64,000 nt of DNA from a virus (IMGVR_UViG_3300045988_183378), one strand, 5' to 3'; shown: positions 3,394-63,797, numbered from the stretch's first letter. Translations and numbers: made by a program. The notes: a model not told the origin generated them from the letters alone.

Positions 3394-3448
3394 TTATCGC
3401 AATTAAGCAAAAAACTCCATCCAACAATAGTCGGTTGTGAGTAGTTCA
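3394..3448 (+). repeat. 57-bp hairpin repeat element, copy 1
   Basis: TTATCGCAATTAAGCAAAAAACTCCATCCaACAATAGTCGGTTGTGAGTAGTTCA; followed by terminator. Confidence 0.7.
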
Positions 3449-3455
3449 GATAGAA

Positions 3456-3502
3456 AAAGACTTAGTATGTATATAATATATATCATACTAAGTCTTTTTA
3501 TT
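3456..3502. terminator. rho-independent terminator (bidirectional)
   Basis: aagacttagtatg...catactaagtcttttt long perfect hairpin flanked by A/T tracts. Confidence 0.65.
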
Positions 3503-3900
3503 TATTTATAAATTTTATTCCATTCTGAATTTTTACAGATTAAATCTATGTCATCATCAGACATATTCAACAACATTTTTATTTCTTTTTTACCGTTTTC
3601 CGTAAAACACATAGCAGCTAAATATTGATCAAAAGACATCCATAATTTATGTTTCTTTAGTTTAGAAATAATAAATAATTTTGCATATAATTTATCCTTA
3701 ATATTATTAGGCATTATATTAACAAATACATTGTTTTTTATTGCTAAATCGGTCATTACATTTATATTAACCACATCGTTATGAGTATCTTTCCAATTAA
3801 AATGATTTTTTATATATTTGATAGACTCATTCTTTCCAACAAAAAACATTTTTCCATTTCCAAATTCAATTGAAAAAATATTAAGTTTGTTCATATTCAT
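3502..3900 (-). CDS. hypothetical protein (132 aa), minus strand
   Basis: ORF track; one of only two minus-strand genes; ends at bidirectional terminator. Confidence 0.45.
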   Translation of the reverse strand: MNMNKLNIFSIEFGNGKMFFVGKNESIKYIKNHFNWKDTHNDVVNINVMTDLAIKNNVFVNIMPNNIKDKLYAKLFIISKLKKHKLWMSFDQYLAAMCFTENGKKEIKMLLNMSDDDIDLICKNSEWNKIYK

Positions 3901-3976
3901 TTTACTCTCCTTAATTTTACAATATTAAATAATATACTATATATAAAATGAATTTACAAATTTATATCCAATTTTA

Positions 3977-3992
3977 TTTTTCTGACATATAT
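3977..3992 (+). promoter_or_regulatory. conserved promoter motif variant TTTTTCTGaCATAT
   Basis: core CTGACAT 3982-3988; ATG 4027. Confidence 0.45.
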
Positions 3993-4026
3993 ATTACATC
4001 AATTAATTAAAGGAGGCGTATTCAAA

Positions 4027-4227
4027 ATGATAGAACATATTGTTTTTAATGTGCAGGCAAATAAAACTTTATCTGATACTAATGAATCATTCTATGGATG
4101 CTGGACAAAAGGACATACATATGAATGTATTGCATTTGGCGATTTCGTATCAGTAAGAAATGATTCTGGGATGTATACACAATTTACAAAAGAAGCTTTC
4201 GAAAAATTTAAAGATAAAATTGCGTAA
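4027..4227 (+). CDS. small hypothetical protein (66 aa), first gene of PARP operon
   Basis: RBS aaaggaggcgtattcaaaATG; ORF track. Confidence 0.5.
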   Translation: MIEHIVFNVQANKTLSDTNESFYGCWTKGHTYECIAFGDFVSVRNDSGMYTQFTKEAFEKFKDKIA

Positions 4228-4243
4228 TATATAAGGAGGATTT

Positions 4244-5530
4244 ATGAAACAGGCAGATATAAATACAATACCAAATCATGAATATTTGGAACTTAATTAT
4301 GTTGCAGAAACAGCTACAGGTAAAGGTAATAATCAACAGATTATTATGCAGGTTAATGCCAATAATAAGAATGTTTTTGATGTTACTGAAGGTAGAATTG
4401 GAATCAGGATAGGAAGGAACAGGCCAAGGACATATTCACTTCCTATGACTAATTGGGATTCTTTTTATTTGTCTAAGGTAAATAGAGGTTGGTTGCTTAC
4501 AAAGACTCAAAAAATGGAGAAAAAAAAGATTACAAAAAAAGGTTTAAGTTTTAATGGCGGCACATATGCACAGACTGGAATTTTCTCTGTTGATTCTATT
4601 ATAACAAAACTGCTTTCATACGCTAATAAGGTTATTTCAGATAATTATTCAACTTCAGTTGAAGATATTTCAGATGAGATGCTTGAATATGGTAATTCGA
4701 TTTTGACTGAATTAGCTAAGAACCATGATTCTATGTCAATTGCAGAGTTTAATAATAAATTAAAAGTATTATATGCTGCAATTCCTAGAAGAATGGATAA
4801 TTTATCTAAACATTTGGCTAAAAGAAAGATTGAATTTGTGGATATCATTGACAAAGAGCAGGAACTGTTTGATATTGTGTATTCTCAGGTAAGATCTAAT
4901 AGTAATTTAGCTAAATATGACACTATGCCAACAGTTCTTCAGGCCTATGGACTTGAATGGAGACCTGTATCTGACGAAGAAGAGACTAAAATCAAGAAGT
5001 TTATGGGAGAAAATGCAAAGCAATATAAAAATGCTTGGAGAATCATTAATAAAAAGACCGAAAAGGCTTTCAATGAATATTGTGCTAAAGAAAATTTAAG
5101 TGATGAAAATAATGGAATATCTCATTTATTTCATGGTTCAAGATCAGAAAACTTCTGGTCCATTATAACTAATGGTTTAACAATAAATCCAGTTGGAGTT
5201 GTAACTAATGGAAAGATGTTTGGATTAGGTACATATTTTGCTAATAAGGCAAAAAAATCGATGGGATATACTTCAAGCTCCGGTTCTTATTGGACTCATG
5301 GTAGTGAAGCAATTGGATATTTAGGCATTTTCAAAGTGGCTACTGGTAAAACATATGATGTAACATCTGCTGAAAGTGATTTAACTTATAATGTTTTACA
5401 ACAGAGATGCCCTGGCGCTCATTGTACTTTTGCTCATGCGGGCCATAGTTTATGTAATGATGAAATTATTGTATATCAGGATCAGCAAAGTACTATAGAA
5501 TATTTTGTTGAATTTACAGCAGCTCAGTAA
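4244..5530 (+). CDS. PARP1-like ADP-ribosyltransferase: WGR domain + helical domain + PARP catalytic domain (H-Y-E triad)
   Basis: WGR-like segment EGRIGIRIGRNRPRTYSLPMTNWDSFYLSKVNRGW; catalytic motifs LFHGSRSENFWSIITNGL (H-G-S), GLGTYFANKAKKSMGY (Y-F-A), NDEIIVYQ (catalytic E) colinear with PARP1 LLWHGSR...GKGIYFAD...YNEYIVY. Confidence 0.75.
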   Translation: MKQADINTIPNHEYLELNYVAETATGKGNNQQIIMQVNANNKNVFDVTEGRIGIRIGRNRPRTYSLPMTNWDSFYLSKVNRGWLLTKTQKMEKKKITKKGLSFNGGTYAQTGIFSVDSIITKLLSYANKVISDNYSTSVEDISDEMLEYGNSILTELAKNHDSMSIAEFNNKLKVLYAAIPRRMDNLSKHLAKRKIEFVDIIDKEQELFDIVYSQVRSNSNLAKYDTMPTVLQAYGLEWRPVSDEEETKIKKFMGENAKQYKNAWRIINKKTEKAFNEYCAKENLSDENNGISHLFHGSRSENFWSIITNGLTINPVGVVTNGKMFGLGTYFANKAKKSMGYTSSSGSYWTHGSEAIGYLGIFKVATGKTYDVTSAESDLTYNVLQQRCPGAHCTFAHAGHSLCNDEIIVYQDQQSTIEYFVEFTAAQ

Positions 5531-17114: not shown

Positions 17115-17171
17115 TTATTGAAAAATAGTAAGAAAACTCCATCTGACAATAGTCGGTTGTGAGTAGTTCAT
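17115..17171 (+). repeat. 57-bp hairpin repeat element, copy 2 (in 5' leader of helicase gene)
   Basis: ...AGTAAGAAAACTCCATCtGACAATAGTCGGTTGTGAGTAGTTCAT. Confidence 0.7.
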
Positions 17172-17203: not shown

Positions 17204-19131
17204 ATGATTGATTATAAAGCTGTTTTAAATGAGCAGCAATATGAAGCTGCTACAACAATTGATGGGCCATTACTTATTATTGCAGGAGCAGGTACAGGTA
17301 AAACAGCAACATTAATACATAGAGTTGCATATATGATAGAAAATGGAATTCCACCTCAGAGTATTCTGCTTTTAACATTCACTAATAAGGCAGCTAATGA
17401 AATGAGTGAAAGAGCTGCACAAATATTAGATGAAAGATGCAATAAAATTACTGCATGTACATATCATTCTTTTTGTGCCAAAATGTTAAGGATATATGGG
17501 GTTTTAGTTGGGCTAAGAAAAAACTTTACTATACTTTCTGAGAGCGATGTTGTAAATACAATTAAACTTCTTATAGCTGAAAATCCAGAAAAATATAAAA
17601 TAAAAAGCGGCTTCTCTGTATCTGAAATCGCCAAAATATTTAGCATGTCAATTAATCAAGATTTACCATTAGAAACAGTTATTGGGCTTAAAGATAGTAA
17701 CTTGGCATTTTTATCATATATATATATACTGAGCTGTTTGAAAAATACAAAAATTATAAAAAGGAAAATAATCTGGTAGATTATGATGATTTGTTAATAT
17801 ACTTTAACGAATTATTAGATAATAAAGCTGTCAGAAATCAAATTTCAAGCAGTTATAAATATATTATGGTAGATGAATATCAAGATACCAATAATCTGCA
17901 GGAAAGAATTATATTTAAAATGGCTCAGAAATATGAGAATCTAGCAGTTGTAGGAGATGATTATCAAAGTATTTATGCTTTCAGAGGAAGTAATGTGTCT
18001 AACTTTATTAATTTCCCTAAAAAGCATAAAAATTGCAAAGTAATAAAACTTGAAAAGAATTATCGTTCCACTACAGAAATACTTAATTTAGCAAATTCAG
18101 TTATGAACCGGTATGCTAATTTTGGATATCCTAAGAATATGACAAGTAATAATAAACAAGGAACTATGCCTGAAGTCATAAGCCTTCAAAATCAGGCAGA
18201 AGAGGCAACCTGCATTTTAAATAGAATAATTAAGCTGCATAATAAAAATGTCCCATATAAGGATATAGCAGTGCTAGAGAAGTATTCCAGAGATTCAGCT
18301 ATATTGGAAACATTGTTAATGAATAATAATATTCCGTACAAAAAAGTTGGAGGACCTAAATTTTTTGAAAGAGAAGCTGTCCAGGATATCTTAGCCTATT
18401 TAAGAGTTATCGCTAATCCAATTGACACATTAGCGTGGTTTAGAATATTGCAATTAATATATGGAATTGGTGATACATATGCAAGAAATATTGTAGAACA
18501 TGTAACAGAAAAAGATTTCTTGCTGCATGAATATCCAACAAAAAAATTTCATCAAGACATGGAAAAATTGCATGATACAATTTTGAATTTTAGAATCAAG
18601 TATTATAGGAACCAGTTAAGTATCCCTGATCTTGTGCTAAAAATAAATGAATATTATATTGAACAAAGAAAAGAATTATTGGAAAATGCTAAATTAAATG
18701 AAGAGCAAAAAATAAATGAACAGGATAAATTAGATGATGATAAAAATATTTTAAAACAGTTATATGAATTATGTACAGTGTTTAATAATCACAAATCTTT
18801 AAACGCTTTTCTTGATAATTTAACTTTAGGGATGGATAACAAAGATGAAGAAGAGGGCTTGGTTATTTCAACAGTACATTCAGCAAAAGGTTTGGAATGG
18901 GAATATGTATTTGTACTTGATTGTGTTACAGGAGTTTACCCAGGATTTAATGCTATGAGCATGGCTGAAGAAGAAAGACAGGAAAATCTAAGAGTATTCT
19001 ATGTTGCTATTACAAGAGCAAAAAAACAAATGTACTTATGTGTCCCAGAAATATATCATGAACGTAAAGTGTATCTTACCCCATATTTAAAACATTTAAA
19101 TAATCATATGTCATTTTCGTATAATTACTGA
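17204..19131 (+). CDS. UvrD/PcrA-like SF1 helicase, reading frame broken within an (AT)6 tract at 17716-17728
   Basis: track ORFs 17204..17779 (GAGTGKTATL Walker A, LTFTNKAANEM) and 17791..19131 (VDYDDLL, MVDEYQDTN, VVGDDYQSIYAFRG, STVHSAKGLEW, FYVAITRAKK); frame ≡1 already open from ~17692 reads ...LFEKYKNYKKENNLVDYDDLL; removing one AT unit restores a single ORF. Confidence 0.7.
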
Positions 19132-29012: not shown

Positions 29013-29027
29013 TATTTTATGTCATAT
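29012..29027 (+). promoter_or_regulatory. promoter motif variant (TTTTATGTCATATATA) driving standalone repeat-element unit
   Basis: core aTGTCAT 29017-29023. Confidence 0.35.
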
Positions 29028-29058: not shown

Positions 29059-29115
29059 TTATCGAAGAATAGCAGGAAAACTCTATTCGACAATAGTCAA
29101 TTGTGAATAGTTCAT
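29059..29115 (+). repeat. 57-bp hairpin repeat element, copy 3 (standalone, between promoter-like motif and terminator)
   Basis: TTATCGAAGAATAGCAGGAAAACTCtAtTCGACAATAGTCaaTTGTGAaTAGTTCAT; compensatory changes keep hairpin. Confidence 0.7.
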
Positions 29116-30547: not shown

Positions 30548-30580
30548 AAGATAAATCAATTTAAAAGGAGGACATACAGT

Positions 30581-31133: not shown

Positions 31134-31190
31134 TTATCGCAATCAAGCAAGAAAGCTCCATCCGACTAATGTCGTTTGTGAGTAGTTCAT
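31134..31190 (+). repeat. 57-bp hairpin repeat element, copy 4 (5' leader of flotillin gene)
   Basis: TTATCGCAATCAAGCAAGAAAgCTCCATCCGACtAATGTCGtTTGTGAGTAGTTCAT. Confidence 0.7.
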
Positions 31191-38241: not shown

Positions 38242-38308
38242 GCTTTAGCTTAGGGGTTTAGGCGACAAAGATACAGCCGACCTAAGTCGGCAGAAAGGAG
38301 TAAGGTTT

Positions 38309-39433: not shown

Positions 39434-39589
39434 ATGGCTTCTTAGTCTATAAAAACATGGTAGGTGGGGACAACACCGAACCTAAAGCTTGTGGACACTG
39501 ATGGGAAAACTGCCAAAAGGTGTGATAATAACCGTAGTGGGTGAAGCAAGAATCCCCTGAGCTTTAGCTCTGGGAAGTGTCAAGCTTTT
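39434..39589 (+). ncRNA. candidate omega RNA (TnpB guide RNA scaffold) / IS right end
   Basis: GC-rich structured 3' region directly after tnpB stop, ending at right-end palindrome; position typical of omega RNAs. Confidence 0.4.
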
Positions 39590-40019: not shown

Positions 40020-40076
40020 TTATCGAAGAATTGCAAGAAAACTCCATCCGACAAAAGTCGGTTGTGAGTAGTTCAT
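40020..40076 (+). repeat. 57-bp hairpin repeat element, copy 5 (5' leader of kinase gene)
   Basis: TTATCGAAGAATTGCAAGAAAACTCCATCCGACAAAAGTCGGTTGTGAGTAGTTCAT then taggagatttttaatATG. Confidence 0.75.
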
Positions 40077-42199: not shown

Positions 42200-43249
42200 A
42201 TGAGAATAAACAAGATTAAGACTAATGTAACAGTATTAAACAAGGTAGACCGTAAGAATTACCAGATAATTAATGTTGATGGTTCAGGTGATTCCATTAA
42301 AGGAACAGCCAAGTTAATCAAAGAGGATGGTTCACTTGATGATTCGGTTACTGCAGTAATTACAGCTAATAATGCAATAGCTTACAAGCTGATTGATGAT
42401 CCTAATATTCCAGATGTTCCAACTGGATATACTGTAGAAAACGGAATTTTGCTTAAGGATGGAGTCCCTGCTACAGAACAGGGTTCACTAGTAATTAATA
42501 GTATTATTGCAGGTGTTGCAGGAAGGCTTATTTTATCTGTTGAACCAAGAGAGCCAAGAGAAGGTTATTTCGATATTATGTCATATACAGTTGAGTCAGA
42601 TAAGTTTAATAAGCTTATCAGAAGATCTATTCCAGAAGTTACAATCATTGCTTCTTCTGAGAATAAGATGCAGTTATATATGACATATTCAAGAACTTAT
42701 ACTAAGGATAAGAAGCTTGAAGATGGAACTATTGAAACAGATAATATCTTTGATGCTGCAGCAATCATGTTATATGATGTAATGTCTGATGCAGTTGTTG
42801 ATCATGTTTCTTTTGCGGAGCCAATTAAGGCTGTAGATTCTGTTAAGGCACCTAATGAAACAATTTTCGCAATTGAAGCAGATACAGTAGTCGATTCTGA
42901 CGGAGTTATCAAGGAAGATGATTATATTACATTAAGATTTGTTGCTTCTGAAGGTCATTCATTAAGTCTTTATAAGACAACAGCAATTGACAGTGTTCCA
43001 GAATCAATTTCAAAGGGATATAATGCAAGCCTGATTAAAGCTTCTTCAGGCAAGTGGTATATTAATGATATCACATATAAGATCCCAGATAAGATAGTTG
43101 CTGAGCTTGCAGGTTATAATGTAATTGTGGATATTACATCTAAGGATCATGTTACAAGAATTTCTCTTGCTAATACAAATACTATGGAGATAAAGACTCT
43201 TGTTATTTCTGAAACAAGAGATAGAGGAGACATTATAACCATAGAGTAA
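42200..43249 (+). CDS. hypothetical protein, paralog A of tandem pair
   Basis: N-term MRINKIKTNVTVLNKVD..., C-term VTRISLANTNTMEIKTLVISETRDRGDIITIE colinear with next gene. Confidence 0.55.
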   Translation: MRINKIKTNVTVLNKVDRKNYQIINVDGSGDSIKGTAKLIKEDGSLDDSVTAVITANNAIAYKLIDDPNIPDVPTGYTVENGILLKDGVPATEQGSLVINSIIAGVAGRLILSVEPREPREGYFDIMSYTVESDKFNKLIRRSIPEVTIIASSENKMQLYMTYSRTYTKDKKLEDGTIETDNIFDAAAIMLYDVMSDAVVDHVSFAEPIKAVDSVKAPNETIFAIEADTVVDSDGVIKEDDYITLRFVASEGHSLSLYKTTAIDSVPESISKGYNASLIKASSGKWYINDITYKIPDKIVAELAGYNVIVDITSKDHVTRISLANTNTMEIKTLVISETRDRGDIITIE

Positions 43250-43381: not shown

Positions 43382-44533
43382 ATGAGAGAAAACAAAATTT
43401 TAGAAAATGTAACAGTATTAAACAAGGTTGACAACAGACAGTATTTAATTACATCTGTTACCGATGGCGTAGGAACGGCTTGTCTTTTAGAAAATGGTGA
43501 AGTAAACGAGGATATATCTGTTATGATATCATCATCTAACGCAATTGCATTCAGGCTTATCAGCAATCCTAATATTCCAGATATTCCAGATGGATATTCA
43601 GTAGAAGACGGAATTTTACTTAAGGATGGTGTTGCTGCTACACAGCAGGGTTCACTGGTAATTAAGAGTATCGTTACATCTGTTCCAGGTAAGCTTTTAT
43701 TATCTGTATTACCTAGAGAAAACACAACAGAACATGATGATTATATTGATTTATTTGCTTATAAGCCGGATGAGGATAAGTTTAAGAAACTTATTCCAGT
43801 TTCAATTCCAATGCCGGAAGTTATAGGTGTATGTGACAAATATGTGATACTAAAGACTTCCTATACACACTTTGAAACAAAGAAGGATTTTAATGGAAAG
43901 GATATTTTCGCTGAATATTTTGATAATGCTGAAATTATCGTTTATGATGGTGCAAAGAATTATATTTCAAGTTATTTAATGCTTGACGCACCAATAAATA
44001 ATGTCATTACTGTAAGAAATTCAATGAATGTACCTACATGGGTCATTGAATATACAGAGCAGGTATGTGATAATAATTATTATAATCCTGATTGTGATTG
44101 TGGTTATGACTGCGAAAATGATTGTGGAGATTATGATGAATGCAATAATTGTGATTATCATTTAGATACAATTACTAATACTAAGGAATTAATCGAAATG
44201 GATCATATTAAAGCAGAAATGATTGCTCTTAATGGTGGTACATTAATGAGGCTCAATAGTATTAATATCCCTTCACATATTAAATCTGTTTCAATTGGTT
44301 GGAATAGTGCTGATTTTATCAGACTTGAAGACAGAATTATGATTGGAGAGTATGTTGATAAAATCATTACTGATTCAAAGATAATGTCTGCAGTTGAAGG
44401 ATATGATTGGATTGTCGATACAAGTAAGGAAGATAATGTAACAAGAATTGCTCTTGCAAACGACAATATGGAAATCAAGTATATTGTTATTACTGAAACA
44501 TCAGATAGAGGAGACGTTGTTAAGGTAGAATAA
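43382..44533 (+). CDS. hypothetical protein, paralog B with Cys/Asp-rich insertion
   Basis: about 50% identical ends to 42200 gene; insert CDNNYYNPDCDCGYDCENDCGDYDECNNCDYH. Confidence 0.55.
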   Translation: MRENKILENVTVLNKVDNRQYLITSVTDGVGTACLLENGEVNEDISVMISSSNAIAFRLISNPNIPDIPDGYSVEDGILLKDGVAATQQGSLVIKSIVTSVPGKLLLSVLPRENTTEHDDYIDLFAYKPDEDKFKKLIPVSIPMPEVIGVCDKYVILKTSYTHFETKKDFNGKDIFAEYFDNAEIIVYDGAKNYISSYLMLDAPINNVITVRNSMNVPTWVIEYTEQVCDNNYYNPDCDCGYDCENDCGDYDECNNCDYHLDTITNTKELIEMDHIKAEMIALNGGTLMRLNSINIPSHIKSVSIGWNSADFIRLEDRIMIGEYVDKIITDSKIMSAVEGYDWIVDTSKEDNVTRIALANDNMEIKYIVITETSDRGDVVKVE

Positions 44534-44644: not shown

Positions 44645-46438
44645 ATGTCAATGTTTGAACATGTAAAAATTGGAGAATTAACAAAAAAGGTTATTGAGTC
44701 AGGAGTTACAGTGTGTGAACATAACCATCCAGGAGGCTCTTTGTTTGATGCCGTAGATGAACCTAAAAGTTATTTAGATGCTGCATTTAATGCAGGATAT
44801 ACTAAATTTGCTGTTACGGACCATGCATCATTTTCAGCAATGCAAACATGTATTGATTACGCTAAGAAAATAAGTACTGAGGAACATCCATTTAATATCA
44901 TTTATGGCGTAGAGGCTTATATTGAAGTGCCACCATTTAAGATAAATGAACAGATTGGCCATATTATTATGTTAGCCACTTCAGAAAGAGGCAAGCATAT
45001 TATTGATAAGTTAAATTCTAAGGCTTCTGAAAAAAGAATGGGAAAGCCTGTTATTACAATATCAGATTTAAAGAAATATAACTTTAACGGTGATATAATA
45101 GCAACTTCAGCTTGCGTTTCGGGTGCACCAGCTCTGCAATTATTATCAGATGATGTTTTGGATAAAATGATTAACAGAGAAAGAAAAGCACAGCAGCATA
45201 CTACTGAAAAAGACGAGCTAGTTATACGTGATTGTATAAGTCCTGATGATAAAGAATATCTTTCAGCTAAAGATGAATTTGAAAGGGTATCGGCAGATTT
45301 AGATGAATTGATTAATATTCGTGATTCCAAGGAACTTAAATCAGAAAGAACACAGATTTCAAGAAAATTAAGAGATGCAAGAAAGTGTTTAAATGATGAT
45401 GATCCAGAGCTTATTAAACTGATTAACGAATATGAGGAGATAAATAATAAAATTCTGGAAGCTAAAGATAAAATTCCTAATGTCAGAAAATTAGTTAATG
45501 CTAAGAAAGCCGAGTTAAAGGATATAAGTCTTAAAGTAGAGGAATATATTAATCATGAAAATAAGATACAGCATTATGAATCATTAAAGAAAAGCCCAAT
45601 AGAATTAATGTCTGAAGCAGAAAAGACAATGCTTTTTTATCAGGAAATTTTTGGAGCAGGTAATTATTACATTGAAGTTCAGAATCATGGGCTTGAAATG
45701 GAAAGCAGAACATATCCTGTGTTAGCTCAGTTAGCAAGGAAGCATAATATCCCATTAGTTGCTGCTAATGATGCACATATGGCAGATAATTCTGATAGAA
45801 GTATTGATATGCGTAATGTAGCTAAATTTTTAAGATTTATTAAGATAAGTGAGTCGGAATCAGATAAAGAGTTATATGTAAAAACACCTTACGAACTTGC
45901 TCAGGCCTTATCAGCTATATTAACAGATGATCAGGTTGCAGAAGCACTCAATAACTTAAATGTAATTGGAAAAAGATGTGCTTATATTCCAGAAAAATCT
46001 AATCATTATCCAGTATTTGATAAGAACAAGGACTCAAACGAATTATTAAGATCTGAAGCAATTAAGGGAATTAATTGGAGATATCCTAACGGAAAAGGAT
46101 GGGATGAAGAACATCAGAAACGAATGGAATACGAACTTAATATTATCATTCAGATGGGCTTTGCCGATTATCATTTAATTGTAAAGGACTTCCTGGAATA
46201 TGGAAGAATTTGTGGATTAGTACCTATGGATAAACTATCAGAAGTACCTTTAACAATTGAAGGTGCAAAAGAGTATGTTAAGGCTCACAATTATAATACC
46301 GGAATTGGAATAGGCATTGGAAGAGGTTCAGGTGCCGGTTCATTGGTTACATATTTACTTGGTATTACCGGAATTGATCCATTTAAGTATAATCTGATTT
46401 TTGAACGATTCTTAAATCCAGAAAGAGTAAGTATGCCT
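44645..46438 (+). CDS. dnaE: DNA polymerase III alpha (DnaE-type) N-terminal part, exon 1 (PHP domain through ...[10 protein letters not shown])
   Basis: PHP motifs [15 protein letters not shown]; YYIEVQNHG; [10 protein letters not shown]; [42 protein letters not shown]; about 190-aa coiled-coil insertion in PHP region. Confidence 0.8.
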
Positions 46439-47378
46439 AAATATATTGGGCGTTCAGCGTGGACTCTAACTCAGAGGTGTGCTTAATATTTTATTATTAA
46501 GTGCTAACGGTAGAAGTTGAATAAGACTGCTATATAAAGTGTCACAACAGGATATATAGCTTAACCCATAGACGAAGCAGCTTCGTAAGAGAACCTACGG
46601 TCCTAATATTTTTATATAAAAGATATTGAAGGATAGCAGGCGATACCGTGCTAAGATTATAAATAATATTATATAAATAAGGAGGTGTATATTTATGATA
46701 GATTATATCAATTTTACATCATTCCTTGAAAAAGGTGAAAAAATAGTAGAAATTAAAAATCACCACGAATATTACATAACTTCATATGGAAAGATTTTTA
46801 GTATAAAACAAGGGAAAATTCGACAACTTAAACCTTTTTTAGATAGTAAAAAGAATTACAGGATGATAAGATTAGATAATAAAAAATATTTATTGCATCG
46901 ATTAGTTGCGATGAATTTTATTCCTAATCCTTATAATCTACCAGAAGTTAATCATAAAGACAAAAATAAACAAAATTGTAAGGTGAATAATTTAGAATGG
47001 TGTACTAGAAAAGACAATTTATATGATAGTTATAAAACTATGTCTCCTGTAAGAAATTATAAGTGTTGTAAATTATATAAAGGAGATATATTAATTGATA
47101 GATTTGAAAGCATATTAGCAGCAGCTCGATATGCTAAAGAAAAATATAACGCAAGTTATTCCTCAATGCATAAATATTTAAAATGGAATGACTTAAAAAT
47201 TGTTCGTATATAATATTATTTATTTTAAAGTGTAACGACTATCCTTTTTAAGGAGTACAACTGAGAATGGTTACAGTTGGAAGTGCGTTGAAATATAATA
47301 TTAACAATATTATATTGAGATATAGTCTAATCCCACTTATACAAGTGTTAAAGTACTACGAAAGTAGGGGTATATTTG
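46439..47378 (+). ncRNA. group I intron (940 nt) carrying an HNH homing endonuclease ORF
   Basis: exon1 ends ...AUGCCU with IGS-like GGGC at intron 5' end (U.G P1 pair); intron ends ...UUUG before GAUAUCGAU; joining gives ERVSMP|DIDSD contiguous with DnaE consensus; GC-richer structured segments. Confidence 0.65.
46695..47213 (+). CDS. intron-encoded HNH homing endonuclease
   Basis: HRLVAMNFIP...EVNHKDKNKQNCKVNNLEWCTRKDN (HNH with conserved N and H); own RBS aaggaggtgtatatttATG. Confidence 0.75.
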   Translation: MIDYINFTSFLEKGEKIVEIKNHHEYYITSYGKIFSIKQGKIRQLKPFLDSKKNYRMIRLDNKKYLLHRLVAMNFIPNPYNLPEVNHKDKNKQNCKVNNLEWCTRKDNLYDSYKTMSPVRNYKCCKLYKGDILIDRFESILAAARYAKEKYNASYSSMHKYLKWNDLKIVRI

Positions 47379-48134
47379 GATATCGATAGCGATCTTGCTC
47401 TTGGAGTAAGAGAAAAGACAATTGAGTATGTAAGAGCTAAATATGGTAGTGAAGCTGTTGTTGGAATTATTACAGAATCAAGACAGCAGGCTAAAGGTGC
47501 TATCAGAGATGCTGCAAGATATTATGGAAAGAAAGCTTATGATGATGAAAAGAAATTCTTATCTTTAGGAGATCAGATTCGTAAGAAAGTGCCTGCTAAA
47601 GCAACTAATTTTGAAGATATTGTTGGCATGAAAGATACTAATAAGGTTGATGAATTAGGCATTAATATTCAGGACAGCGTTTCTTTGTTAGATTTCTTAA
47701 AGGATGAATATAATAGTAATCCAGATGCTATTTCTATTCTTAATATTGCAGCTCATTGTGAAGGTATGCTTACGACATACGGACAACATGCCGCAGGTGT
47801 TATTATTTATGATAGTAATGATGTTACTGATTATATTCCTATTAGAGATGGAAAAAAGGGAATTAAAACTACAGAAATGGATATGATTCAGTGCGAAGCT
47901 AATGGATTATTAAAAATGGATTTTCTTGGATTAAAAACTCTTACAATTATTACTGACACACTCAGAATGATTCAGAGAGATACAGGAGAAGTAATTGATG
48001 TAATGAATATTCCATTAGAGGGTCCTAAAGCTGATAAGGTATACAAAGAAGTATATGCAAAAGGAAGAACTAAGAATGTTTTCCAGTTTGAGTCAGCCGG
48101 TATGAGGAATAACCTTAAGAAGTTATGCTCATAG
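47379..48134 (+). CDS. dnaE: DnaE N-terminal part, exon 2 (DIDSD...FQFESAGM...)
   Basis: DIDSDLALGVREKTIEYVRAKYG..VVGIITE...AKGAIRDAARYYG matches DnaE PDIDIDF..R.EVI.YV..KYG; ends LKKLCS* with TAG. Confidence 0.75.
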   Translation, partial: DIDSDLALGVREKTIEYVRAKYGSEAVVGIITESRQQAKGAIRDAARYYGKKAYDDEKKFLSLGDQIRKKVPAKATNFEDIVGMKDTNKVDELGINIQDSVSLLDFLKDEYNSNPDAISILNIAAHCEGMLTTYGQHAAGVIIYDSNDVTDYIPIRDGKKGIKTTEMDMIQCEANGLLKMDFLGLKTLTIITDTLRMIQRDTGEVIDVMNIPLEGPKADKVYKEVYAKGRTKNVFQFESAGMRNNLKKLCS

Positions 48135-49145: not shown

Positions 49146-49202
49146 TTATCGCAATTAAGCAAAAAAACCCCAACCGACAATAGCCGGTTGTGGGTAGTTC
49201 AA
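49146..49202 (+). repeat. 57-bp hairpin repeat element, copy 6
   Basis: TTATCGCAATTAAGCAAAAAAACCCCAaCCGACAATAGcCGGTTGTGgGTAGTTCAAT; compensatory base changes preserve extended stem. Confidence 0.7.
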
Positions 49203-50788: not shown

Positions 50789-50845
50789 TTATCGAAGAAT
50801 TGCAAGAAAACTCCATCCGACTAATGTCGGTTGTGAGTAGTTCAT
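50789..50845 (+). repeat. 57-bp hairpin repeat element, copy 7
   Basis: TTATCGAAGAATTGCAAGAAAACTCCATCCGACTAATGTCGGTTGTGAGTAGTTCAT. Confidence 0.75.
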
Positions 50846-50876
50846 TAAAACTTCAGAATCAGAAACAGAAAAGAAT

Positions 50877-51083
50877 ATGTTAAATATCATTAAAAATACT
50901 TTAATAAGTGAGATTTCAGAAGCTTCTATAGAAGTCTCTGAGACAAGTTGGTTGACTGAAAGTACATATGATGACGATGGATATTCTAACGATGATGGCG
51001 AGGAAGTTATTTATGCAAATACAGCGGTTAATATAATTGAAAGCGTCATATATGATAATTCTGACGAAAATAATAACAACTAA
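50877..51083 (+). CDS. small very acidic protein (68 aa)
   Basis: TYDDDGYSNDDGEEV...DNSDENNNN. Confidence 0.35.
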   Translation: MLNIIKNTLISEISEASIEVSETSWLTESTYDDDGYSNDDGEEVIYANTAVNIIESVIYDNSDENNNN

Positions 51084-53853: not shown

Positions 53854-55539
53854 ATGAATAAAACAGGTATTGAAGATTTAATAGCAATGAATGCTTTATA
53901 TCGTCCTGGTCCTGAAAAGTTTATACCTGATTTCATAGAAGGTAAAAAGGATGCATCTAAGATTAAATATTTATGTCCTCAATTAGAGCCAATTTTGTCA
54001 ACTACTTATGGACAGATAGTTTATCAGGAACAGGTAATGCAGATTGTTCGTGATTTAGCAGGATATACATGGGGGCGTTCTGATTTAGTCCGTAGAGCTA
54101 TGTCAAAAAAACATCAGGATGAGATTGATGCTGAAAGACACACTTTTGTATATGGTAATGCTGATACTAAAAAAGAAAATGAAGCATTAGTACCAGGTTG
54201 TATTGCAAATGGAATTCCAGAAGTTATAGCTCATAAGATTTGGGATGCAATGGTTGACTTTGCTAAGTATGCGTTTAATAAGTCACATGCCACTGCTTAT
54301 GCTGTTACATCATATTGGACAGCTTTTCTTAAGTATTATTATCCGGCTTATTATCTTACAAATGTAATAAATCATACTGATAAGATTGATGAAGTCGCTG
54401 ATGATATTAGTGATGCCCTTGATTTTGGAGTAAAGGTATTGCCTCCGGACATTAATGCTTCAAATTTACATTGTGATGTTGTAGATGGGAACATTTTGTA
54501 TGGTCTGAGTAATATTAAGAATGTTGGAGCAGAAGCAGCTAAAATTATTGAAGATAGAAATGTTAATGGAGAATATTCTGATATTAAGGATTTTATCAAA
54601 CGAACAAATATTAATGCAGAAGCATTAAGTTCCTTAATTAAAGCAGGTGCTTTCGATTGCCTTGGTTATACAAGAACAATGATATCATTAGATATGATTT
54701 GTATGAAAGAAATTCAGGATACAATTAAGAAAATCAGAGAGAAGAGTAAGTTTATTGAAAACGCAAGTAAAGTTATTGAATTTGTGGAAGATTATATTGA
54801 TCTTGATGAGTTTAAGGAAAGAATTTCAGAAGAAAATATTTCCTTTCAAGTTACTTCAAAAAAGATGCCAACTAAGGATTCCATAATTAAACGTATCAAT
54901 TCAGCTAAGACAGTTATAGAAAGCTTAGAAGATGATCTTGAAAATATAGATATTGATTATGTAGAAGATGATTTAGGTCAGATTCTAAATGATGAAAAAG
55001 AAGTGTTAGGCGTTTATATTACAGGGCATCCAATTGATGAGTATAATATTTATACAGATCCCATTTCTGATATTTCAACAGAAGTTAACGATGTATCTGG
55101 TATAATTAAAAATCTTGTTGTAAGAAAGGATAGAAATGGATACGAATGGGTAACTTTTGAGGTAGAAGATAAAACAGGTTCTATTAATGGTGTATGTTTT
55201 TCTAAGGATTATGCGAATATTAGAGACTTACTTGTTAATGATGCTAAATTATGTTTATCAGGAAAAATTCAAGTAGATGATTTTAGATCTTCAGATGACG
55301 AAACTGTATATCAGATTATTGTTAAGTCTGTTAAACCTTTAAAGAAAAATAAGTCTTCATACAGATTTATATGTACTGTTTCTGAAGTAAATGATATTCT
55401 TGATTCTATTAATGAATATCTGGTAGATAATGACGGGGATTATTTATATTGGCTTGATTCAACAACCGGAATTGAACATTTATGCAAGAAATTCATTAAC
55501 CCTGATATGTCAGCACCTTCAATAGTCCGTAAATGCTAA
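53854..55539 (+). CDS. dnaE: DnaE C-terminal part as separate gene (fingers/thumb, OB-fold region)
   Basis: IAMNALYRPGPEKFIPDFIEGKK, LEPILSTTYGQIVYQEQVMQIVRDLAGYTWGRSDLVRRAMSKK, FAKYAFNKSHATAYAVTSY colinear with E. coli DnaE; own terminator, promoter motif, RBS and ATG. Confidence 0.8.
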   Translation: MNKTGIEDLIAMNALYRPGPEKFIPDFIEGKKDASKIKYLCPQLEPILSTTYGQIVYQEQVMQIVRDLAGYTWGRSDLVRRAMSKKHQDEIDAERHTFVYGNADTKKENEALVPGCIANGIPEVIAHKIWDAMVDFAKYAFNKSHATAYAVTSYWTAFLKYYYPAYYLTNVINHTDKIDEVADDISDALDFGVKVLPPDINASNLHCDVVDGNILYGLSNIKNVGAEAAKIIEDRNVNGEYSDIKDFIKRTNINAEALSSLIKAGAFDCLGYTRTMISLDMICMKEIQDTIKKIREKSKFIENASKVIEFVEDYIDLDEFKERISEENISFQVTSKKMPTKDSIIKRINSAKTVIESLEDDLENIDIDYVEDDLGQILNDEKEVLGVYITGHPIDEYNIYTDPISDISTEVNDVSGIIKNLVVRKDRNGYEWVTFEVEDKTGSINGVCFSKDYANIRDLLVNDAKLCLSGKIQVDDFRSSDDETVYQIIVKSVKPLKKNKSSYRFICTVSEVNDILDSINEYLVDNDGDYLYWLDSTTGIEHLCKKFINPDMSAPSIVRKC

Positions 55540-56975: not shown

Positions 56976-58004
56976 ATGGCAGATAAGAATTTATTATTAA
57001 ATAAAAAAAACAATAAAGATGAATATGTTGATGAATTATTTGATACAAATAAACCAATAGAAAACATAAATATTTTATCAGAGGATAATTATACCGATAT
57101 TTTAAATGATAAAGAGATTTTAAATGAAAAAGAGAAACTATTATTAGAAAATAATATAACTTATTATATTAAATCATTCGCTGATTATCCGGTTTTATCC
57201 AAAGATGAAACTCTTAAATTATTTGAAGAGATAAAAAAACATCCTAAAAAGAAAAAAGAAATAACCGAAAAATTGATTTTATCTAATATGCGTTTAGTCA
57301 TCAGTATTGCTAAAGCTGTTACAGCTAAAACGCAAAGTTTTGAAATGGATGATTTATGTCAGGCCGGTATTTTCGGGTTATACAGAGCTATACAAATGTT
57401 TGATTATAAATTAGGATATGCATTTTCAACTTATGCAACTCATTGGATTAGACAGAGTATATATAGAGAATTAGCCAATTATGATTTATTAGTTAGATTC
57501 CCTGTACATGTAAGAGAGCAGGATTCTTTTGTTAAGACTACATTTGTGGATTTAACTAATAAACTTCAAAGAAAACCTACAATTGATGAATTATATGATG
57601 TAGTAAAACAAAGATATCCTCTTTTAACTAAAGAAATGCTTGTACATATTCAGAGCTTTAATGAATTGGTTTCATTAGATGCACCTATTCAAAGTGATGA
57701 AGGCCATGACGATTCGTGTTTGGCTGATTATATAGAAGCTCCTGAACCTAAAGTTGAAGATACGATTATTCAAAAAGAAATGAATGAACTGCTTTGGAAA
57801 GAAGTTGAAGATTGTCTCACTCCTAGAGAATTATATGTAATTAAGAGTAGAATGGGATATGGTTCAAAGGTTAAAACTTTAAAAGATATAGGTACTGAAT
57901 GGAATGTTTCCAGAGAACGAATCAGACAAATTGAATCAAAAGCAATAAAAAAGATTAGAGTTCGTTTCAGACGGAAAGGATATAGTATACAATCTTTTAT
58001 GTAA
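56976..58004 (+). CDS. sigma-70-family RNA polymerase sigma factor (regions 1.2-4 present)
   Basis: region 2 LILSNMRLVISIAK...DDLCQAGIFGLYRAIQMFD...FSTYATHWIRQSIYREL; region 4 LTPRELYVIKSRMGYG..KTLKDIGTEWNVSRERIRQIESKAIKKIR. Confidence 0.8.
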   Translation: MADKNLLLNKKNNKDEYVDELFDTNKPIENINILSEDNYTDILNDKEILNEKEKLLLENNITYYIKSFADYPVLSKDETLKLFEEIKKHPKKKKEITEKLILSNMRLVISIAKAVTAKTQSFEMDDLCQAGIFGLYRAIQMFDYKLGYAFSTYATHWIRQSIYRELANYDLLVRFPVHVREQDSFVKTTFVDLTNKLQRKPTIDELYDVVKQRYPLLTKEMLVHIQSFNELVSLDAPIQSDEGHDDSCLADYIEAPEPKVEDTIIQKEMNELLWKEVEDCLTPRELYVIKSRMGYGSKVKTLKDIGTEWNVSRERIRQIESKAIKKIRVRFRRKGYSIQSFM

Positions 58005-61521: not shown

Positions 61522-61830
61522 GTGGATTTTACACTATTTATGAAGATTATTATACTTTCGTTTATTGTAACTTTTATGGTAATAATGCTGTTTAAATCAA
61601 CTATTGATTTAATTGACAGAGTAAAAGAGAAGTCATTTCTATATAGTCTTATTGAGCAATGTACTGATTGCAGCCATGATGAGATTATTACCTTTAAGAA
61701 GCAGTTATCAAGGGAAGAGCAGATAACATTTTTAAAGTCACTTAAGTATAAGGAGTCTTATAAGAATGGATTTCTTATTACAGAAGAGATAGATTTAAAA
61801 ATATATAAACCAATACTAAAAAGGAGATAA
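61522..61830 (+). CDS. small membrane protein, paralog of 60258 C-terminal region
   Basis: shared FLK motif. Confidence 0.35.
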   Translation: MDFTLFMKIIILSFIVTFMVIMLFKSTIDLIDRVKEKSFLYSLIEQCTDCSHDEIITFKKQLSREEQITFLKSLKYKESYKNGFLITEEIDLKIYKPILKRR

Positions 61831-61833
61831 GTT

Positions 61834-62508
61834 ATGAAATTTAAGAAAAAGAAATCATTTTGGAAAGTTTTTTTAGATGAGTGTGCAGGAGTAATATTAG
61901 CCGGGGCAATTATGATATACATTGCCTTATCTGCCATTATAGGAAATCTGATATTGCCATACATAAATAATGGTAAGTTGATAAATCCATATGTAGAAGA
62001 TATAAGCAATAAATTTACATTATTTGTAATTAGAACATTCATAAGCTGTATATGTTTATTTGGCGTAATTTTCATGCTGTTAATTGCTTTTGCTATTATA
62101 GGCGTAATTGTAATAGCAATAATAACCGGAATAACACATATAACAGCCGTAAAACGATATACATATTTGCCTCTTACAGCAGATGAAGTAAGAGAAGCTA
62201 TAAATGCAGGATTATTTAAAGATACTCCTGAAAGCTATATAGATTATCTTACAAAACAGATGAAGTATTTTGATGGCAGTATAACCTTTTCAATAAATGA
62301 TATGAAAATGATAATAAAAACAGTAAAGGAAATATGGGATAAGCCATTTAAGCTTAATAAAGATTATCTTATCAGGAATGAAATAGAAAGTTATGATTAT
62401 TTCCCATTTAGATTTAGGGATGACAGAGATGATTTATTTCAGTTAAAGAAAGGCAAAACAGTAACTTTTGATATGGATAAAGGTTCTTTGATTCAGGATA
62501 TCAAATAA
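61834..62508 (+). CDS. membrane protein (3-4 TM)
   Basis: ORF track; RBS aaaaaggagataagttATG. Confidence 0.4.
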   Translation: MKFKKKKSFWKVFLDECAGVILAGAIMIYIALSAIIGNLILPYINNGKLINPYVEDISNKFTLFVIRTFISCICLFGVIFMLLIAFAIIGVIVIAIITGITHITAVKRYTYLPLTADEVREAINAGLFKDTPESYIDYLTKQMKYFDGSITFSINDMKMIIKTVKEIWDKPFKLNKDYLIRNEIESYDYFPFRFRDDRDDLFQLKKGKTVTFDMDKGSLIQDIK

Positions 62509-62523
62509 AAAGGAGCATATAAG

Positions 62524-62937
62524 ATGAATAGAGATAAAATTTTTAATTTAGTTATATGTTTAACATTTAGTATTACACTTATTTCGATTATAACAGCATT
62601 GCAGCTTGGGCTTAGATATGAAATTAAGAAATTTTCAAAAGAAACCACAGAAGAAGCCCAGCTTTACAGTATCAGCACGGATAAAGAATATGAAGGTTCA
62701 TTTGTATTAGGTTCGGGAAGTATTGGTTCACAAGAATATATAACTGCTTACCAGATTACAGAAGACGGTGGTAAGAAGTATTTCAAGATGAACAGAGATA
62801 AAGTAACAATCTATGATACATTAAACAATGATGAACAGGCTTATGCAGAGATAAAGAAGACTTCATTAGGAATTAAAGAAATTAAGCTGTACGTTCCTAA
62901 AAATACAATAGAAAAGGAAATTAATCTTAATTTATAG
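62524..62937 (+). CDS. hypothetical protein with N-terminal TM/signal anchor
   Basis: ORF track. Confidence 0.4.
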   Translation: MNRDKIFNLVICLTFSITLISIITALQLGLRYEIKKFSKETTEEAQLYSISTDKEYEGSFVLGSGSIGSQEYITAYQITEDGGKKYFKMNRDKVTIYDTLNNDEQAYAEIKKTSLGIKEIKLYVPKNTIEKEINLNL

Positions 62938-63142
62938 TAGGGATAAATTTGGAATTGACAGATATGATTTATTCTGCCAGTTAGAGAGAAACAAAACAGT
63001 TGTTTTTGATATTGATGGTTGTTCTTTAATTCAAAATGTCAAATAAAGAAAAAGGAAAAATTTTGATACATTTGATGATACTGATATAAAAAATCAAAAA
63101 GACAAAATTAATAAAGAATCATTAATAGTAGGAGAATAAGGT

Positions 63143-63664
63143 ATGAATTTAAAATTAAAAACACATAACGAATATTTGAATATTAATTTTGATAATGCGA
63201 CTGATGAAAATATTAATAAATCTTTATCAAAAAAACGAATAACTAAAATTGTTTTAGCAGGTATTCTTATATGTTTTATTTTAAGAATTATAAGTTTGAT
63301 TATAAAACTTACATTTATTTCAATAATCGCATTAATAGGTTTTGGTATTTTTATATATTTAAGCTTATTTATATGTATCAGTAAAGACATTGATTCCACT
63401 GTTATAGGTATTAAAAATTCAGAATATTGGGATAAAATAATAGCTTTAAAAAAGGTTATTCAAGAAATGGACATAAATAAAGAAGTATATTTTCAATCAG
63501 ATTTTACAGAGCTTCTTTATTTAAAAAAAAATAGCAGCATATATTCTGAATATAAGTTGCCTTTAAGTGAAATAAAATATTCTGAATCGGATAACTTTGA
63601 ATTAACTTATGACAAAAATACATTAAATATAATTTTGTATGTTCCTATAAAATACATGTATTGA
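63143..63664 (+). CDS. membrane protein (2 TM)
   Basis: RBS aggagaataaggtATG. Confidence 0.4.
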   Translation: MNLKLKTHNEYLNINFDNATDENINKSLSKKRITKIVLAGILICFILRIISLIIKLTFISIIALIGFGIFIYLSLFICISKDIDSTVIGIKNSEYWDKIIALKKVIQEMDINKEVYFQSDFTELLYLKKNSSIYSEYKLPLSEIKYSESDNFELTYDKNTLNIILYVPIKYMY

Positions 63665-63746
63665 AAAAGCAACAAATGATTTTATTCTTAATTCTAAAAG
63701 AAAGGATGATAGTTATGACAGATAAAGAATTTCATGATTTGAATAA

Positions 63747-63797
63747 TTATCGAAAAATAGCAAGAAAACTCCATCCGACAAGAGTCGGTTGTGAGAT
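63747..63797 (+). repeat. 57-bp hairpin repeat element, copy 8 (diverged 3' end), immediately upstream of TnpB-like gene
   Basis: TTATCGAAAAATAGCAAGAAAACTCCATCCGACAAGAGTCGGTTGTGAG then atgaattgctctg. Confidence 0.65.

Follow-up and report, generated by a model that had tools for sequence, protein, structure and literature searches.

The hairpin repeat dispersed through this DNA is best explained as the end sequences of one insertion sequence of the IS200/IS605 family and the IS605 type, which carries a Y1 tnpA gene and, divergent from it, a tnpB gene of about 460 codons; we put the probability of this reading at about 0.88. The element has entered this genome, a phage- or plasmid-like one from the gut, more than once; we analysed one stretch of it, 64,000 nucleotides long (hereafter, the window). 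The initial annotation had proposed a novel repeat family that could be a cis-regulatory RNA, a small RNA or a remnant of a mobile element. The last of these suggestions was right, the repeat being the ends of a tnpA-tnpB insertion sequence. Novelty and a regulatory or small-RNA identity are not supported, the same sequences bounding tnpA-tnpB in unrelated bacterial contexts.

Repeat copies and their hairpin

A scan with a 38-nt core, allowing up to 12 mismatches, recovers exactly eight copies on the + strand of the window and none on the - strand, while shuffled sequences give a chance expectation of 0. The eight co-oriented copies of the initial annotation, and their positions, are thereby borne out; its uniform 57-bp length is not, as copy 1 measures 56 nt and copy 8 shares only its first 49 nt with the others. 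The features are as follows.

3394..3449, + strand: copy 1, solo unit of 56 nt; TTAT target, left-end 5' part of the CGCAAT subtype, palindrome and TAGTTCAG tail
17115..17171, + strand: copy 2, solo unit; TCTGTCATA promoter-like motif 18 nt upstream
29059..29115, + strand: copy 3, solo unit with the most decayed stem (GTCAA, GAAT)
31134..31190, + strand: copy 4, solo unit of the CGCAAT subtype, upstream of a flotillin-like gene
40020..40076, + strand: copy 5, solo unit beginning directly after the stop codon of a 49-aa ORF
49146..49202, + strand: copy 6, solo unit of the CGCAAT subtype with a compensatory ACCC/GGGT outer stem
50789..50845, + strand: copy 7, solo unit whose right boundary coincides with the start of a deletion in L044
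63747..63812, + strand: copy 8, true left end of the resident tnpB-only copy; TTAT target, CGAAAAATAGCAAGAAA, palindrome (63768-63796) and ATGAATTGCTC
63851..64000, + strand: the opening 50 codons of TnpB, which measures 462 aa in L007 and has the Pfam matches OrfB_IS605 and Cas12f1-like_TNB

The hairpin is larger than its 5-bp CCGAC/GTCGG core and can be written GAA.ACUCCA.UCCGAC-loop-GUCGG.UG.UGAGU..UUC. Fold z-scores range from -1.9 to -4.3 for the repeat and from -3.7 to -5.3 for the element-end palindromes folded as single-stranded DNA. Covariation supports the stem: when left ends, right ends and solo units are taken together (26 distinct palindromes), the proportion of cells that pair is 92%, against 20-42% in slid controls, and double changes occur in four of the 11 pairs. 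The compensatory substitutions previously reported for copies 3 and 6 are sound for copy 6, a true double change of the outer stem from ACTC/GAGT to ACCC/GGGT that recurs in the right end of the L028 element; in copy 3, however, one double change (C-G to T-A) is accompanied by two C-A mismatches. Copy 1, which ends in TTCAG, is decayed, as its 1-nt deletion in the A-run and its CCAAC stem mismatch attest.

The hairpin had also been likened to the left-end palindrome GCCGAC-CTAA-GTCGGC (38276) of another IS605 element resident in the window. That is a different insertion sequence, and the 5-bp similarity is incidental in view of its boundaries (38218-39581, mapped from empty sites) and of its own AGCTTTAGCT-type palindromes, which read CCTCTAAGCTTTAGCTTAGGGG on the left and CCCCTGAGCTTTAGCTCTGGG on the right.

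Ends, boundaries and relatives of the element

Copy 8 matches the repeat over positions 63747-63795 and then continues into ATGAATTGCTC, a conserved left-end-specific sequence of the insertion sequence. As the left end of the element it supplies TTAT, then CG..GCAAGAAAACTCC-hairpin-GTGAG-ATGAATTGC, and the element stops with a right end of the sequence ..CATAGAAACTCC-hairpin-GTGAG-TAGTTCAT. The remainder of the TnpB gene and the right end (finishing in ..CATAGAAACTCCATCCGACTAATGTCGGTTGTGAGTAATTCAT) fall beyond the window, as presumably does the omega RNA (guide-RNA) region. In L007, identical to the window over copy 8 (57/57 positions) and its flanks (300/300 and 197/197), the hairpin recurs just past the TnpB stop codon as the right end, which substantiates the earlier proposal that copy 8 is the left end belonging to the gene at 63851. 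The near-identical relatives L007-L016, metagenome contigs that reach beyond the window, have this gene bracketed by the palindrome on both sides, with GTTGTGAG joined to ATGAATTGC at the left junction and CATAG joined to AAACTCC..GTTGTGAGTAATTCAT on the right. The window contains no tnpA of this element's family, so copy 8 and its gene constitute a non-autonomous, tnpB-only copy.

The 462-aa product matches PF01385 and PF07282 and has more than 5,700 homologues, some of which their sources call RNA-guided endonuclease InsQ/TnpB. As far as the sequence can be read, it appears to be without the usual cysteine zinc-finger motif between RuvC motifs 2 and 3. A guide RNA ending in ..GTAATTCAT is predicted, which would take the right flank as its guide and TTAT as the target-adjacent motif; an E-value scan of Rfam around the TnpB copy returned nothing meaningful.

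Membership in the IS200/IS605 family emerges from relatives. TnpB homologues at three levels of identity adjoin a divergent PF01797 (Y1_Tnp) gene and are enclosed by a left and a right end that match those of this element: P0007 (76% identity; L026 and L027), P0008 (62%; L028) and P0115 (53%; L036, the chromosome of Butyrivibrio sp. AE2032). The L036 copy interrupts an otherwise open reading frame, for which a search for uninterrupted homologues with the halves joined gave no hits. P0004, an 86% identical TnpB in L037, keeps a right end, with no recognisable left end. The left-end-specific ATGAAT(T/C)GC and the right-end-specific CATAGAAAC are conserved family-wide. L026 also holds an ends-only element of about 230 bp (4515-4746), made of the left end, the last ~156 nt of tnpB with the right end, and the tip of the right end. 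The element thus does give rise to derivatives with internal deletions. An exact-hairpin scan of a genome collection, whose pattern is too strict for diverged copies such as that in L036, gave a single contig from a Clostridia MAG, belonging to this replicon family, and one chance match in a high-GC genome. Megablast for close phage relatives gave only one unannotated 4.4-kb fragment, tblastn with the helicase only distant (~25% identity) Herelleviridae-like matches, and a tRNA scan found none.

IS200/IS605 elements move as single-stranded DNA, in a transposition mode known as 'peel and paste'. Each end has, on the top strand, a subterminal imperfect palindrome to which TnpA binds. Cleavage by TnpA is 3' of a target tetranucleotide on the left side of the element and, at its right tip, 3' of a tetranucleotide that resembles it. 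The ends described here have this layout. On the left, TTAT is followed by CG(A/C)A..GCAAGAAA, the palindrome ACTCCATCCGAC-loop-GTCGGTTGTGAG and then ATGAATTGC; on the right, ..CATAGAA leads into the palindrome ACTCCATCCGAC-loop-GTCGGTTGTGAGT and then AGTTCAT, the last bases of the element. The two palindromes are nearly identical. TTAT stands 17 nt 5' and the terminal TCAT 7 nt 3' of the palindrome arm, which matches the geometry of IS608, with TTAC 19 nt 5' and TCAA 10 nt 3' of the palindrome foot (PMC3201880). The conserved tetranucleotide that the initial annotation had thought worth looking for is thus present: TTAT precedes all eight window copies and at least five additional solo sites, and it also precedes the left ends of the elements in L026, L028, L073 and L074. 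Variants are ATAT (L036), TCAT (one copy) and TTAC (one orthologue). Beyond TTAT the flanks share no similarity, after TTCAT nothing is conserved, and no target duplication is seen, IS200/IS605 elements making none (PMC7290912).

Comparison of genomes marks the same boundaries. The flanks of L009 and L007 part directly after TTCAT, and in L044 a deletion of 164 bp (window 50846-51009) sets in exactly where copy 7 ends on the right. The presence of copy 5 is polymorphic: L021 is without it and has the seven nucleotides TAATTAT after TTAT instead, the kinase gene and its ribosome-binding site remaining intact. All copies lie on the G-rich + strand (GC skew of +0.1 to +0.25 over 4-64 kb, with gene orientation confounded with skew). 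Such uniform orientation is what a rule that places insertions in the template of the lagging strand predicts (PMC5027513), and that rule may account for it here.

Origin of the solo units and competing explanations

What, then, are the seven copies that stand alone? Each combines the 5' part of the left end, a single palindrome shared by both ends, and the tail of the right end, a composition that marks it as derived from the insertion sequence, in solo or miniature form. Most likely they are scars, where a full or tnpB-only copy would have lost its interior through recombination or replication slippage between the two palindromes, direct repeats of about 30 bp, much as solo LTRs arise. We found no site where a full-length copy in one genome corresponds to a solo unit in another, and for this reason a deletion origin is something that we infer. 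Their intergenic, promoter-proximal placement would fit a preference for TTAT-rich, transiently single-stranded DNA as target, and the intergenic placement would equally fit selection against insertions within genes.

Less likely, though the most serious competitor at perhaps one chance in four, is that the 57-nt unit is mobile in its own right, a miniature element that is REP-like or a PATE with one palindrome and that the family's TnpA, acting in trans, would excise and insert 3' of TTAT. Solo units occupy at least nine sites in this replicon family against one tnpB-only copy, and since they outnumber gene-bearing copies the unit itself could spread. The solo-specific pattern also recurs at at least five additional sites with unrelated flanks, TTAT on the left and a sharp TTCAT boundary on the right. 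Each unit retains the palindrome along with the bases 5' of its foot, and has the target tetranucleotide and the right tip as well, and the polymorphism of copy 5 is what a mobile unit would produce. However, the TnpA dimer binds both end palindromes (IPL and IPR), and the four bases 5' of each recognise its own cleavage site (PMC3201880), from which it would follow that a lone palindrome is unable to offer the two cleavage sites simultaneously. The 5' subtypes CGAAGAAT, CGAAAAAT and CGCAAT each match different full-length left ends, which fits independent origins as well as spread, and the L021 site, where TAATTAT separates TTAT from the right flank, falls short of a precise donor joint, a point that weighs against the main reading as well. 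An extension of the same idea, in which a minimal transposon mobilised in trans had some of its copies co-opted as 5'-leader hairpins tuning phage replication genes, we regard as improbable.

Similarly improbable is a reading by which the repeat would be, or would have become, a cis-acting RNA of 5' leaders, either a translational operator or a hairpin for stabilisation or processing, with copy 3 as a small RNA of about 120 nt. Its appeal lies in a stable RNA hairpin with sense copies in transcribed intergenic regions. Copies 2, 4, 5, 6 and 7 do precede start codons, as had been reported, at a spacing of 15-33 nt rather than 13-35 bp; the UvrD-like gene starts 32 nt downstream of copy 2, and 15 nt separate copy 5 from the dNMP/guanylate-kinase gene. 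Copies 2, 3 and 4, together with a copy at 19134 of L007 that lies outside the window, are downstream of the promoter-like TCTGTCATA motif. The flanks described for copy 3 are real, consisting of a one-mismatch match to the abundant TTCTGTCATA motif upstream (29017-29026) and a terminator-like hairpin downstream (29141-29168). A look-up for the protein at 30506-31006 of the window returned no record.

Against a cis-acting RNA, insertion-sequence ends in unrelated genomes account for the whole of the repeat sequence. Rfam 15 gave no hits in the whole window at gathering score, and its sole match below E = 1 was at chance level (rteR, 28.5 against 72 bits). The downstream genes are functionally unrelated, and copy 5 is dispensable in L021. 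Nor is there support for the selection on structure that the initial annotation read from the stem: orthologous solo units differ at 16 of 1197 positions and their flanks at 62 of 8400, copy 3 orthologues at 5 of 57 and 6 of 587, respectively, and because the units diverge at least as fast as their surroundings they show no sign of constraint. Stem-breaking changes have accumulated in copies 1, 3 and 4. The five sense copies close to start codons may have a secondary effect on expression, and, if the hairpin once transcribed did influence the genes that follow it, this would be a by-product.

Very little speaks for a pre-existing phage regulatory repeat into one copy of which a TnpB cassette was inserted with duplication of about 30 bp. 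The order hairpin-tnpB-hairpin at copy 8 would by itself be compatible with it, but the same ends bracket tnpA-tnpB in the Butyrivibrio chromosome and other unrelated contigs (L028 and L036 contradict it directly), the family makes no target duplications (PMC7290912), and ATGAAT(T/C)GC and CATAGAAAC are conserved across the family. The least credible proposal is that of a coding fragment (a J domain-like frame of some copies, reading YRRIARKLHPTKVGCE up to a stop) or of a CRISPR-like repeat standing alone. The frame is open in copies 5 and 8, but the 1-nt deletion of copy 1 and a TGA stop in copy 2 rule out coding. Rfam, including its CRISPR direct-repeat families, gave nothing at E <= 1 when copies 3 and 4 were scanned, and tandem arrays of the repeat were not detected.

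Relation to known systems and significance

The insertion sequence to which we attribute the repeats closely parallels IS605 and IS608 of Helicobacter pylori and ISDra2, which likewise combine a Y1 HUH TnpA with TnpB; the relatives found here share the divergent tnpA/tnpB layout of IS605. In common with these elements are near-identical imperfect palindromes near both ends on one strand and the absence of terminal inverted repeats and of target duplication; the uniform orientation seen here on the G-rich strand may be a further common trait. Insertion 3' of a tetranucleotide recalls IS608, with TTAT in place of TTAC and a right tip of TCAT in place of TCAA at a comparable distance between cleavage site and palindrome. 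It is, however, a different, unnamed member, found in gut Clostridia (Lachnospiraceae/Butyrivibrio-type hosts) and their phages or plasmids, with a TnpB of about 460 aa and, in the window, a copy lacking tnpA.

PATEs, the ends-only derivatives of IS200/IS605 elements, are likewise non-coding and made of element ends. Those described keep both ends and span about 230-270 bp (PMC7290912, PMC10055086); among our sequences a left and a right palindrome without a gene occur together only in the classic, PATE-like unit of about 230 bp at L026 4515-4746, where they enclose the omega-RNA region, whereas the 57-nt units keep one palindrome and are without the omega-RNA scaffold. REP and BIME sequences are also short, dispersed single imperfect palindromes, related to Y1 substrates, intergenic and co-transcribed with their neighbours. 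REPs, in contrast, are tied to a single-copy domesticated RAYT gene and not to a TnpA/TnpB insertion sequence; the Y1 genes seen here are insertion-sequence tnpA genes adjoining tnpB, and copies number in the tens rather than the hundreds. The closest analogy for the proposed origin may be the solo LTR, a single hybrid repeat left by recombination of two direct terminal repeats, although LTRs belong to another transposon class and the recombining repeat would here be only ~30 bp.

The main value of these results is a correction: a structured repeat located in gene leaders looks regulatory and is transposon-end debris, and its annotation as transposon ends keeps a spurious RNA family from being created. 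For an uncharacterised and very abundant TnpB family of gut Clostridia, the results define the ends together with the right tip TCAT and the likely target motif TTAT, which is the information that predicting its guide RNA and target-adjacent motif requires. The single-palindrome hybrids of left and right ends offer a simple substrate for establishing the minimal DNA requirement of TnpA. The large gut phage- or plasmid-like replicon itself stands out as a repeated landing site, having received at least four different IS200/IS605 elements.

Hairpin repeats and the tnpB gene at the window end

The initial annotation described a family of eight hairpin repeats on the + strand, and this description holds: searching by consensus core, by repeat finder and with mismatches allowed recovered exactly eight copies in the window each time, no additional copy turned up on either strand, and shuffled sequence gave no match.

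Repeat copies, by start position
3394, + strand: copy 1, solo unit with a 1-nt deletion
17115, + strand: copy 2, solo unit
29059, + strand: copy 3, solo unit
31134, + strand: copy 4, solo unit
40020, + strand: copy 5, solo unit
49146, + strand: copy 6, solo unit
50789, + strand: copy 7, solo unit
63747, + strand: copy 8, left end of a tnpB-only element

Each copy folds, as RNA or single-stranded DNA, into an extended imperfect hairpin (GAA.ACUCCA.UCCGAC-loop-GUCGG.UG.UGAGU..UUC). In copy 8 the consensus match stops at GGTTGTGAG, from where the sequence reads ATGAATTGCTC. Contigs of replicon relatives (L007-L016) are identical to the window across copy 8 and its flanks and run beyond the window end. 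There TnpB, its gene beginning at 63851, is 462 aa long and has OrfB_IS605 and Cas12f1-like_TNB domains; a second hairpin copy lies about 50 nt 3' of the stop codon. Left of the gene the sequence is TTATCGAAAAATAGCAAGAAAACTCCATCCGACAAGAGTCGGTTGTGAG|ATGAATTGCTC, right of it ...TTACATGTTAAAAAAAACATGTAACATAG|AAACTCCATCCGACTAATGTCGGTTGTGAGTAATTCAT. The left hairpin copy has the repeat's 5' part and no TAGTTCAT tail, the right copy has the tail and no 5' part, and a solo 57-nt unit is therefore exactly the left-end 5' part, the palindrome and the right-end tail. The mobile-element reading proposed earlier was correct, as was the placement of copy 8 at the left end of this gene.

Ends shared with tnpA-tnpB relatives

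Homologues of this TnpB number more than 5,700, many of them from Lachnospiraceae/Butyrivibrio and many on ~2-kb contigs, which is typical of repeated insertion sequences. We compared genomic surroundings at TnpB identities of 76% (L026/L027), 62% (L028) and 53% (L036, the chromosome of Butyrivibrio sp. AE2032); at all three levels tnpB adjoins a divergently transcribed Y1 transposase gene (PF01797), the classic IS605 layout. At the left boundary of the pair, (T/A)TAT is followed by CG...AG(A/C)AAAAC(T/C)CC-palindrome-GTTGTG(A/G)G-ATGAAT(T/C)GC, and the right boundary lies directly after ...CA(T)AGAAAC..-palindrome-..G(T/G)G(A/G)G-TAGTTCAT. Since the same two ends bound tnpA-tnpB pairs in all these contigs, the hairpins are the subterminal palindromes of an insertion sequence. 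The L028 element has bacterial sensor-kinase and methyltransferase genes as neighbours, that in L036 interrupts an otherwise continuous reading frame, and a further viral contig (38-43% G+C) carries two left ends of a related variant, each right after TTAT. We are dealing with an unnamed IS200/IS605-family element and with degenerate derivatives of it that keep a single palindrome; repeat family and element represent no new kind of system. The landing of a TnpB cassette in a pre-existing phage repeat is excluded, because the same ends bound tnpA-tnpB outside the replicon.

The copies agree with the IS200/605 target rule raised in the initial annotation: TTAT stands directly 5' of all window copies, of all new solo sites and of the left ends of full elements, with no similarity upstream of TTAT and no conservation after TTCAT. 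IS608 is cleaved on the left at TTAC, 19 nt 5' of the palindrome foot, and on the right at TCAA, 10 nt 3' of it, and the four bases 5' of the foot read both cleavage sites (PMC3201880). Here, by comparison, the distance from TTAT to the palindrome arm is 17 nt, and the element end TCAT follows 7 nt 3' of the arm, the four bases 5' of the arm being AAAA at the left end and GAAA at the right. In our reading TTAT is both the target and the target-adjacent motif, and the right tip is TCAT.

Three comparisons among relatives provide evidence that the repeat boundaries are real junctions. L021, without copy 5, reads GGCATTAGTTAT-TAATTAT-TAGGAG where other relatives have GGCATTAGTTAT-(CGAAG...TAGTTCAT)-TAGGAG; the right junction is exact, yet 7 extra nt are left behind, so this is not a clean donor joint. 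L007 and L009 have the right end in common and part immediately past TTCAT, and the first base of a 164-bp deletion in L044 (window 50846-51009) falls directly after copy 7. This deletion at the right boundary of copy 7 (about 1020-1024 in L044) resembles transposase-end-associated adjacent deletions.

Across 26 distinct palindromes from left ends, right ends and solo units, 92% of cells pair in the proposed helix; with partner columns slid, 20-42% do. Both-sided changes occur in 4 of 11 helix pairs. ACTC/GAGT becomes ACCC/GGGT in three palindromes (copy 6 of the window, the right end of L028 and the left end of L036), and CCGAC/GTCGG becomes CCGAT/ATCGG in L036; an additional outer helix of the left end, GCAA..TTGC, is GCGA..TCGC in L036. 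Just 5' of the right-end palindrome lies a second covarying hairpin (TTACATGTT/AACATGTAA in L007, ATGAATGGAAT/ATTCCATTCAT in L028), which probably forms the final stem in the guide-RNA scaffold of TnpB.

Second right-end hairpin
L007, 12120-12150
L026, 4405-4435
L028, 4395-4425

The replicon and its other elements

The window has ~27% G+C, a strongly positive GC skew and nearly all genes on the + strand. It encodes Pol III alpha (several ORFs), UvrD-type helicases, RecJ, RecA and primase, besides a sigma-70 family protein, a Mob_Pre relaxase (29-1234, - strand, at the left edge and opposite in strand, with a PARP-domain protein nearby at 4244-5530, + strand) and two TnpB genes. No close annotated phage was found in the phage collection; the same replicon, which may be a phage, a phage-plasmid or a large plasmid, occurs widely in metagenome assemblies of the human gut. 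Its contigs there measure 100-600 kb; of these, ERZ824458 NODE_60 (203 kb) matches the window exactly in all regions compared, and IMG/VR holds two replicon contigs of ~100 kb each.

In the stretches 44645-46486, 46695-47213, 47376-48134 and 53854-55539, Pol III alpha is divided among three separate ORFs with PHP+pol3_alpha, pol3_alpha+finger and finger+HHH_6+OB, and an HNH_3 endonuclease gene lies 3' of the first piece; between the second and third pieces are ~5.7 kb of genes unrelated to them, along with repeat copies 6 and 7, and relatives keep the arrangement. A UvrD-type helicase is split in the window (17204-17779 and 17791-19131; 191 and ~421-446 aa) and in NODE_60, whereas most relatives (L054-L059) have one uninterrupted ORF of 641 aa; a recent mutation (nonsense or frameshift) or an error of assembly is the likely cause of the split. 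The neighbouring paralogues at 42200-43249 and 43382-44533 (349 and 383 aa), with ~79% identical segments and repeated upstream regions, are a tandem duplication. The motif TTCTGTCATA(T) occurs 55 times at no more than one mismatch (9.8 expected), mostly on the + strand (~40) and ~30 nt upstream of AGGAG ribosome-binding sites, often with a TTATGTAA box ~20 nt further upstream. It resembles a promoter type particular to the replicon and may be recognised by the encoded sigma factor (56976-58004; Sigma70_r2 and r4).

Examples of TTCTGTCATA(T), + strand
1352, 5736, 11026, 14167, 21370, 25490, 29218, 32981
37184, 39825, 42149, 43334, 48191, 51421, 53808, 59237

Second, unrelated IS605-type element
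38218-39581: 374-aa TnpB with HTH_OrfB

This second element, whose two ends have AGCTTTAGCT-type palindromes in common, interrupts an 84-aa ORF after ...ATAATTGAA, and its last bases are ...GTGTCAA; it is present in L017 and L021, and absent, with the ORF intact, from L018, L019, L020, L023, L045, L046, L048 and L050. Likeness of the repeat to the hairpin at 38276 had been offered as support for mobility and is incidental, because that hairpin belongs to this different, polymorphic element with palindromes of its own. Relatives carry a distinct element with co-oriented Y1 tnpA and 368-aa tnpB (L007/L010, 14214-15697), and Y1 tnpA with a 418-aa tnpB replacing the region beside the Mob_Pre gene (L065/L066, 1-1324). 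The replicon family thus hosts at least four different IS200/IS605 elements, two of them in the window.

Origin and significance of the solo units

In a full copy the palindromes form direct repeats of ~30 bp; deletion of the interior between them, by recombination or replication slippage, would leave exactly the observed hybrid and is the probable route to a solo unit. An internal-deletion derivative exists in L026 (4515-4746; also in L027): a ~230-bp PATE-like, ends-only unit, 40 bp downstream of a full tnpA-tnpB element, that joins the left end to the final ~156 nt of the tnpB/right-end region, in which it is 90% identical to the full copy nearby, and to the right tip. The unit directly follows a promoter-like CTGTCATA motif, the ATTAT of which serves as target, and an orphan guide RNA for TnpB could be encoded in it. 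No site was found that is occupied by a gene-bearing copy in one genome and by a solo unit in a second genome, and for this reason movement of the 57-nt unit itself by TnpA, though unlikely, keeps appreciable weight beside interior deletion. A solo-specific pattern scan of gut metagenomes found at least five further solo sites with unrelated flanks, and the solo 5' subtypes CGAAGAAT, CGAAAAAT and CGCAAT each have their counterpart in a different left end of full-length elements, suggesting that the element invaded several times independently.

In IS200/IS605 elements one specific strand transposes and the lagging-strand template is preferred for insertion, resulting in genomic orientation bias (PMC5027513). 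All copies lie on the G-rich strand, co-directional with the genes, which would fit this rule. Intergenic positions would be expected from selection, and the location of copies 2, 3 and 4, another copy outside the window (L007 19134) and the mini-element of L026 just downstream of promoter-like motifs would fit AT-rich TTAT targets in frequently unwound DNA.

Compared with the window, orthologous copies in relatives show 16 differences in 1197 positions and their 200-nt flanks 62 in 8400, counts that are phylogenetically non-independent; for copy 3 the figures are 5 of 57 and 6 of 587, and copies 1, 3 and 4 have stem-breaking changes. This comparison gives no sign of purifying selection on solo units beyond that on the neighbouring, mostly coding, DNA, and the repeat matches no Rfam family. 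The regulatory or small-RNA roles envisaged earlier are unnecessary, the repeats being accounted for as insertion-sequence ends. The element and its solo derivatives are worth annotating, and the defined ends help in predicting which guide and target-adjacent motif an abundant TnpB clade uses.
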